DNA of 41,128 nucleotides from positions 1 through 41,128 of the IMG/VR virus record IMGVR_UViG_2718217884_000003. One strand, written 5' to 3'. Both the position numbers and the translations under genes were made by a program. This document shows, piece by piece, positions 6,579 through 6,889 of the stretch. Below the pieces are notes generated by a model. The model saw only the letters and a program-made list of their open reading frames with translations. It did not search any database and was not told the DNA's origin. Positions within the stretch are counted from its first letter, which is position 1, and each line of letters opens with the position of its first letter. This DNA is from a virus. Its lineage: Duplodnaviria > Heunggongvirae > Uroviricota > Caudoviricetes.

Positions 6579-6743
6579 ATAGACCTCCTGATGAACTTTG
6601 GTGGTGTGGTAGGTGGGAGACCCATTTCGACCTGTTTCGGCCTACTTCAATTCGGCAATAGTCCCGCAGGCCTCGCCGCTTTACGTGCGACATATTCCCG
6701 TCCATGAACCCTTCACCACACCCCAAAGTTCACTTTGGTTATT

Positions 6744-6758
6744 GCGCTTTGTCAGCGC
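6744..6758 (-). promoter_or_regulatory. nutL boxB hairpin (P22-type GCGCUGACAAAGCGC)
   Basis: Minus-strand sequence GCGCTGACAAAGCGC in the pL leader upstream of N. Confidence 0.6.
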
Positions 6759-6826
6759 CGTAGATTCATATTCGAATCGTTGTATATTCACCGCCCTGGT
6801 GAGTAGTGCGTCCTGCTGATGTGTTT

Positions 6827-6889
6827 AGTATCACCGCCAGTGGTATTTATGTCAACACCGCCAGAGATAATTTATCACCGCAGATGGTT
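6827..6889 (-). promoter_or_regulatory. pL promoter with operators OL1 (6829..6845), OL2 (6853..6869), OL3 (6873..6889)
   Basis: All three 17-bp operators match canonical lambda OL as recalled; -35 TTGACA (6850..6855 rc) and -10 GATACT (6827..6832 rc). Confidence 0.85.

Follow-up and report, generated by a model that had tools for sequence, protein, structure and literature searches.

A lambda-specificity immunity cassette very probably set between the halves of an HK97/H-19B/933W-type N antitermination module

Described relatives and the segments of the window

Among the described lambdoid phages, HK97 (NC_002167/AF069529) is close to the early-left control region of the window, meaning here the whole 41,128-nt stretch of DNA that was analysed. 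Over a 900-nt query that takes in the operators, pL, the leader and N, HK97 is colinear with the window at 99.7% identity; the N protein is identical and nutR is the same. The gene order is also alike, with gp48/gp49 instead of rexAB. The differences consist of one 1-nt leader indel (GGTGAATATAC versus GGTGATATAC) and a few substitutions; outside the early-left region, however, HK97 matches only about 38% of the window's first 25 kb. With mEp234 and HK106 (EF120460/EF120461) the same query is colinear at 99.3%, which includes the junction at the start of the pL transcript discussed below. These phages differ from the window in the loop of the nutL spacer hairpin (AGAGAT versus GAATAT in the window) and in the genes between OL and cI (hicAB and others). 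The record of the mEp234 immunity region, EF120460, annotates pL, oL1-3, a lambda-like transcript start, a putative nutL boxA/boxB, N, nutR and 'boundary sequences'. The arrangement described here has already been sequenced and annotated in HK97, mEp234 and HK106. Degnan et al. (2007) is said to be the source for mEp234 and HK106 as wild lambda-immunity phages. In the accessible literature nothing usable was found on the 'boundary sequences' or stating that HK97 is lambda-immune.

The Shiga-toxin phages H-19B and 933W carry the same boxB in nutL and nutR and the same spacer hairpins as the window. The 933W leader from +1/+2 and its N are 98% identical to those of the window, and N differs from that of H-19B by three substitutions. 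Upstream of +1, in contrast, the operators and promoters of H-19B and 933W are unrelated and belong to other immunities, while H-19B also differs in a replaced interior of the long leader domain and in its nutR boxA (CGCTATTTT). Lambda itself shares with the window the operators, the promoter, +1..+16, the CACC/GGUG stem of the 5' leader hairpin (hp1), the basal helix of the long leader domain and the order of the elements. It differs in having a canonical boxA, another boxB (GCCCUGAAGAAGGGC), another arginine-rich motif (ARM, MDAQTRRRERRAEKQ) and another N C-terminus.

Comparison with lambda, 933W and H-19B resolves the window's early control region into the following segments:

5505-6819: H-19B/933W-type segment with N-nutL and the gene downstream
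6788/6805-7069: lambda-type segment with pL/OL and a terminator
7070-8406: HK97 gp48/gp49 segment, replacing rexAB
8407-9431: lambda-type segment with cI, OR and cro
9410-9891: H-19B-type segment with nutR and cII

The features of the early-left control region at 6195-6889 lie on the minus strand. Very probably, this region belongs to a natural lambdoid phage or prophage of the HK97 lineage, in which a lambda-specificity immunity cassette separates the left and right parts of an HK97/H-19B/933W-type N antitermination module. The cassette would consist of OL1-3/pL, the terminator, two non-rex genes, cI, OR1-3/pR and cro, with nutL and N forming the half of the module to its left and nutR the half to its right. 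N is at least 97% identical to the N proteins of HK97, H-19B and 933W, and the leader and nutR are colinear with theirs, spacer hairpins included. By sequence comparison this is classical lambdoid module exchange, a well supported case and not a new one. It serves as an example of the swapping of repressor/operator cassettes between antitermination systems in lambdoid phages, and the early antitermination module is one that the window phage would have in common with Shiga-toxin phages.

The original prediction had placed a mosaic junction between lambda and P22 within 6579..6830, a span that corresponds exactly to the pL leader plus the -10 region. The mosaic itself is real. On the prediction's own terms, however, a single known phage with continuous homology across promoter, nut and N would speak against it, and HK97, mEp234 and HK106 each show such homology. 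These three phages and PhiR5_2 are independently sequenced wild isolates with an identical junction. The junction was also found in at least nine IMG/VR contigs and in 110 of 5426 complete E. coli genomes, counted when at least 80% of a 151-nt probe across the junction was covered; a further 718 E. coli genomes (828 in all) match one half of the probe only. The joint is a common and recurrent module boundary. Classical laboratory hybrids have their immunity boundaries in the same neighbourhood, and an artificial origin was considered, either as an assembly chimera or as a phage constructed in the laboratory, of which lambda imm434 and lambda-P22 hybrids are examples. This recurrence in independent natural genomes leaves such an origin with a negligible probability, and both the laboratory and the assembly chimera were rejected.

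The immunity cassette and its boundaries

The features that define the cassette at its two ends are:

6873..6889, minus strand: OL3 operator, lambda-type, an exact 17-mer of lambda OL3 and oL3 in EF120460
6853..6869, minus strand: OL2 operator, lambda-type, exact lambda OL2
6829..6845, minus strand: OL1 operator, lambda-type, exact lambda OL1
6827..6855, minus strand: pL promoter, TTGACA-17-GATACT, 10/12 in a promoter scan, identical to lambda pL and annotated as pL in EF120460
6805..6820, minus strand: shared junction sequence ATCAGCAGGACGCACT, +1..+16 of the pL transcript, from comparison with lambda, 933W and H-19B
9410..9431, plus strand: right-hand shared boundary, spanning the end of cro and the beginning of nutR boxA, where lambda homology (8407-9431) and H-19B homology (9410-9891) overlap

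pL is a sigma-70 promoter, with transcription starting at the A of ATCAGCAGG, position 6820. Lambda-like pL and OL1-3 had been predicted, and positions -1..-80 are identical to lambda at 78 of 80 sites. The claim of lambda-type immunity also stands: cI is identical to that of lambda at 235 of 237 residues and Cro at 65 of 66, and five of the six operators are exact (OL1-3, OR2, OR3). OR1 at 9174-9190 has one substitution relative to lambda OR1 (TACCTCTAGCGGTGATA versus TACCTCTGGCGGTGATA). By every sequence criterion the immunity is of the lambda type (imm lambda). A prophage of this kind is expected to be repressed by lambda CI, yet to be unresponsive to lambda N.

At the rex position (7073-8118, minus strand) the window has two ORFs of 216 and 135 aa, located where HK97 has gp48 and gp49. 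They belong to PHROG 5820 and 26809, and neither has a Pfam match. Between these genes and OL lies a G+C-rich hairpin terminator (7047-7070) that is kept in lambda, 933W and H-19B and is labelled Timm in mEp234 and tM in 933W.

As predicted, the first 16 nt of the leader match lambda (16/16) and only patchy similarity follows, in a comparison of six phages anchored at the transcript start. Stx-phage homology (98%) begins at 6821/6819, which is +1/+2, and runs through N. Since 933W, H-19B and Stx-phage homology sets in at +1/+2, and lambda remains identical as far as +16, the left crossover between the lambda-type cassette and the HK97/H-19B-type module would fall within +2..+16 of the pL transcript (6819..6805), a refinement of the predicted exchange point within 20 nt of the transcript start. 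Judged from the alignments, the left "junction" is a step in lambda identity from ~97% to ~65% and not a passage into unrelated DNA. The right boundary, a 22-nt shared stretch at 9410-9431, is the counterpart of the one at the start of the pL transcript. On either side the cassette therefore ends in a short shared stretch lying just within nutL or nutR, which lets one N protein serve both flanks whatever repressor lies between them.

The extent to which this boundary is shared was surveyed in IMG/VR. A scan with the pattern TCAGCAGGACGC-N6-C-N3-A, which requires the motif and whose counts describe a sample and not frequencies, returned at least 119 loci, and 92 of the matches listed are lambdoid pL leaders. 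Upstream of +1 these 92 leaders have 16 operator/promoter types and downstream many nutL types, all joined at +1. Leaders were classified by boxA and boxB, as single-linkage clustering does not separate the lambda type from the HK97 type. Among the matches listed, lambda-type operators are followed by four nutL types, namely lambda nutL, the HK97 type (12, references included), a P22-type nutL with a canonical boxA (locus L050) and a GGCTGAAAAGCC-type nutL (locus L085). A second scan, anchored on the boxB 15-mer and independent of the 13-mer (its counts again a sample and not frequencies), gave 96 nut-context sites among the matches listed, 69 of them with the exact 13-mer ATCAGCAGGACGC 52-62 nt upstream. 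Among the same listed sites the 13-mer has one mismatch in 18 and two in 5, and is absent in 4.

Recombination within the short shared sequences (13-16 nt at the left joint, 22 nt at the right) is the most likely origin of the arrangement, with a direction and date that cannot be read from the sequences. Alternatively, random illegitimate recombination could have made the joint and selection retained it; the 5' end of the pL transcript would then be conserved for a function of its own, and only joints that preserve it would be viable. An identical stretch of just 13-16 nt is short for RecA-type homologous recombination, and retention of the motif across at least 16 operator types, with a covarying hairpin after it, suggests a function and not a passive linker. 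However, every sampled combination joins at one place without duplications, deletions or filler, and a second shared sequence marks the right boundary. The phages also encode recombinases (Erf is annotated in HK97, and ORF 4288..4995 is present in the window), and phage recombinases such as Erf can use short homology. Illegitimate recombination is therefore held to be possible, though rather unlikely, and recombination within the shared sequences is preferred.

N protein, nut sites and the question of P22 specificity

The elements of the antitermination module are:

6195..6578, minus strand: N antiterminator gene, 127 aa, from the ORF and Pfam N_peptide PF25694 (E=1.7e-15)
6744..6758, minus strand: nutL boxB GCGCTGACAAAGCGC (GCGCU-GACAA-AGCGC), equal to that of HK97, H-19B and 933W and nutL boxB in EF120460
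6763..6778, minus strand: nutL spacer hairpin GAUUC-GAAUAU-GAAUC, +43..+58, predicted by folding, with no canonical boxA before it
9425..9433, plus strand: nutR boxA CGCTCTTTT, by comparison with the lambda and rrn consensus
9440..9451, plus strand: nutR spacer hairpin GGAC-AUUC-GUCC, predicted by folding
9456..9470, plus strand: nutR boxB TCGCTGACAAAGCGA (UCGCU-GACAA-AGCGA), identical in HK97 and H-19B

N is the first gene of the pL operon. Its product scores 57.8 bits against Pfam N_peptide (cutoff 27.9), belongs to the N-like PHROG 271, and has the ARM 12-RSRRRER-18 and a C-terminal RNAP-binding segment (...LPNVALYAAGYRKSKQLTAR). It matches HK97 N at every residue, while identity is 98.4% with 933W N and 97.6% with H-19B N (3/127 positions differ); a PDB sequence search with N gave no matches. 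The N protein of H-19B, with the ARM 12-RSRRRER-18, antiterminates at the H-19B nutR in vivo and in vitro with NusA and NusG, and mutations at R3, S11, R15 and R18 abolish antitermination (PMC3526286, PMC4499122). All four residues are kept in the window N, and by analogy this copy would be active in antitermination.

The proposed sequence of events would start with lambda-type CI leaving OL, upon which pL would fire at 6820. The leader RNA would form the 5' hairpin, the spacer hairpin and the boxB hairpin with its GACAA loop, and then the long closed domain, which would stop just short of the ribosome-binding site of N. The 127-aa N protein would bind boxB through its ARM and, together with NusA, modify RNA polymerase, allowing read-through of the predicted terminators at 5522..5505 and 5484..5465. 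These two intrinsic-terminator-like sites are located past the gene after N and before the cIII thermoregulator element. Via nutR, N would also give read-through of the terminators of the pR operon.

Hairpins of the boxB type (5-bp stem, purine-rich pentaloop) are predicted in both the pL and pR transcripts, before the first terminators, and the 13-nt boxB core occurs exactly twice in the window versus 0.13 occurrences expected by chance. The presence of the same boxB loop in nutR, at 9456..9470, had been predicted correctly. A nutR boxA is present and can be set beside the boxA consensus of lambda (CGCUCUUA) and of rrn (UGCUCUUUA) (PMC2724277). In the window leader, a canonical boxA (CGCUCUU(U)A) 5' of the nutL boxB is absent, and the sole nutL boxA mark in EF120460 is a 'putative' CGCACTACT at +11..+19. 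The nutL boxB is instead preceded by the spacer hairpin, whose stem is kept and loop changed in mEp234. An analogous hairpin is found in the nutR spacer, and two hairpins have been described for the H-19B nutR (PMC3526286).

The absence of a canonical boxA from the window nutL fits an account of H-19B as independent of boxA and NusB. Neely and Friedman reportedly found in 2000 that H-19B N acts without need for boxA, NusB or S10, and are said to have called a dyad in the spacer the "reducer". The nutL spacer hairpin is presumably linked to this dyad. By the same analogy, the window nutL may be competent and independent of boxA and NusB. Five related loci (L020, L041, L049, L093 and L096) have the same +14..+33 segment and the same boxB together with a canonical boxA (GGTGATGCTCTTTAACAAC), at the place where the window has GGTGAATATACAAC (6780-6792) followed by the spacer hairpin. 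Because these relatives carry the boxA within an otherwise common context, the HK97/H-19B nutL looks like a derivative that has lost it. Two further IMG/VR loci show other changes to the nut region. In L072 (around 6969-7070), which is too short for the N gene to be read, the HK97-type leader scaffold has kept its spacer stem and has a different loop and another boxB, GGCTGAAAAGCC, amounting to a boxB swap in one scaffold. The contig L195, with two boxB matches, carries a boxA and a different boxB-like hairpin, then the HK97-type spacer hairpin and GCGCTGACAAAGCGC; its nut region looks tandem or composite.

The original prediction assigned the leader boxB, the N C-terminus and the N/nut specificity to P22. 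The boxB at 6758..6744 (+63..+77) does match the P22 nutL boxB, GCGCUGACAAAGCGC, at 15 of 15 positions. The C-terminal part of the claim holds for the last 33 residues of N, which align to P22 gp24 with 67% identity (E=5e-11); for the remainder of the protein it does not, as BLASTP aligned these residues only and left the N-termini unaligned. The ARM of N is identical to the P22 ARM at 7 of 21 positions when aligned by hand. At the nucleotide level, homology to P22 is confined to 13-14 nt at the transcript start, the 15-nt boxB and the last 68 nt of N (72%). Unlike the window, P22 has a canonical nutL boxA (CGCTCTTTAA), no nutL spacer hairpin, different operators and a nutR boxB of CCGCCGACAACGCGG, as opposed to TCGCTGACAAAGCGA.

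A wider view of the pairing between boxB and N is given by the IMG/VR matches listed, in which GCGCUGACAAAGCGC is combined, rare variants aside, with two ARM families. The first is the P22 type, GNAKTRRHERRRKLAIER, with a canonical boxA in the leader. The second is the HK97/H-19B type, GNSRSRRRERLKAK, without boxA and with the spacer hairpin. The cores of both are alike, GN(S/A)(R/K)(S/T)RR(R/H)ER, and cross-recognition of boxB between P22-type and HK97-type ARMs is plausible on this basis. The N proteins themselves are mosaic (loci L008-L126, matches listed), with an ARM that tracks boxB closely and a C-terminal segment that reassorts independently. Two C-terminal segments, plus variants, are seen among the matches listed: ...YAAGYRKSKQLTAR (LPxVAxYAAGxRKSKQxTAR) and a lambda-like ...GRQKxKGKSIPLI. 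Both are found behind lambda-type, P22-type and several other ARM types in the same matches. Because this segment reassorts independently of the ARM, a 'P22-like C-terminus' is uninformative on nut specificity.

These observations bear on whether the window is a lambda x P22 hybrid, with N/nut of P22 specificity and with P22 gp24 and the window N interchangeable. The exact boxB, its restriction to P22-type and HK97-type ARMs, the similar ARM core and the C-terminal identity all speak for such a hybrid. Against it are the limited nucleotide homology, the dissimilar N-termini and ARM, the different P22 nutR boxB and nutL layout, and the occurrence of the C-terminal segment in N proteins with unrelated ARMs. 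The source module, moreover, is that of HK97/H-19B/933W, at 98-100% identity. The hybrid is thus regarded as improbable, and descent of the module from P22 is refuted by the alignments. What stands of the P22-type assignment is that the module differs from that of lambda; the HK97/H-19B/933W type is the preferred identification.

Structure of the pL leader RNA

The pL leader extends for 242 nt before the N ORF and includes the following elements in addition to the nut site:

6788..6802, minus strand: 5' leader hairpin hp1, +19..+33, UCACC-AGGGC-GGUGA, predicted by folding
6591..6733, minus strand: long closed RNA domain, +88..+230, MFE z=-3.3 to -3.8
6584..6589, minus strand: Shine-Dalgarno AGGAGG of N, +232..+237, from the sequence

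Over its whole length the leader is 86% identical to that of H-19B, 68% to that of lambda and 64% to that of P22. By these alignments the four leaders are diverged homologues with a common layout.

Folding predicts a hairpin that starts at +18, +19 or +20, immediately upstream of boxA, in 31 of the 32 distinct 5' leader segments compared among lambdoid loci (L008-L126), the one exception having a weak hairpin of -1.5 kcal/mol. The stems are of at least four kinds (CACC/GGUG, GCCAA/UUGGC, CCAAC/GUUGG and CGGC/GCCG), a variety that looks like covariation in the predicted structures. To our knowledge no named function has been given to this hairpin. The first 13 nt of lambdoid pL transcripts, AUCAGCAGGACGC, are near-invariant and could make up, with the covarying hairpin (+19..+33), a functional element of their own, although this is a doubtful proposal. 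Possible roles for such an element include promoter escape, protection of the 5' end and assembly of the N complex. If true, it would be the conservation of the 5' element that makes immunity cassettes freely exchangeable between N/nut types. The 'boundary sequences' of Degnan et al. (2007) may already cover the 13-nt element.

The long domain is closed by a basal helix, GUGAACUUUGGGGUGUGGU / ACCACACC-CCAAAGUUCAU, and ends 2 nt before the ribosome-binding site. An equivalent basal helix is predicted in the lambda, H-19B and P22 leaders, with interiors that differ. In the lambda N leader the corresponding domain is the part processed by RNase III, and by analogy the window domain may have a lambda-like role in RNase III processing or N autoregulation. 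Within this domain (6733..6591) lies a second mosaic patch at 6714-6604, where an interior of ~110 nt is replaced in H-19B. Up to CTTTGGGGTG, and once more from CCAAAGTTCATCAGGAGG onward, the H-19B leader equals that of the window; the basal helix is also common to lambda. Despite the replaced interior, the closed domain is predicted in the leaders of the window, lambda, H-19B and P22 alike.

In the minimum-energy fold, 6810-6819 (+2..+4 and +8..+11) pairs with 6575-6584 (+237..+246), the region of the N start codon. This predicted pairing of the 5' end comprises 7 bp only and may be incidental. Two ORFs that overlap the leader, 6613..6819 on the plus strand and 6529..6726 on the minus strand, were set aside as genes; they overlap structured non-coding RNA and are unannotated in the examined records. 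An Rfam search over the leader found no family, its sole matches being one at chance level and the cIII thermoregulator farther downstream. The latter, Lambda_thermo at 5400-5448 on the minus strand, scores 63.7 bits, with the match truncated at the edge of the searched stretch.
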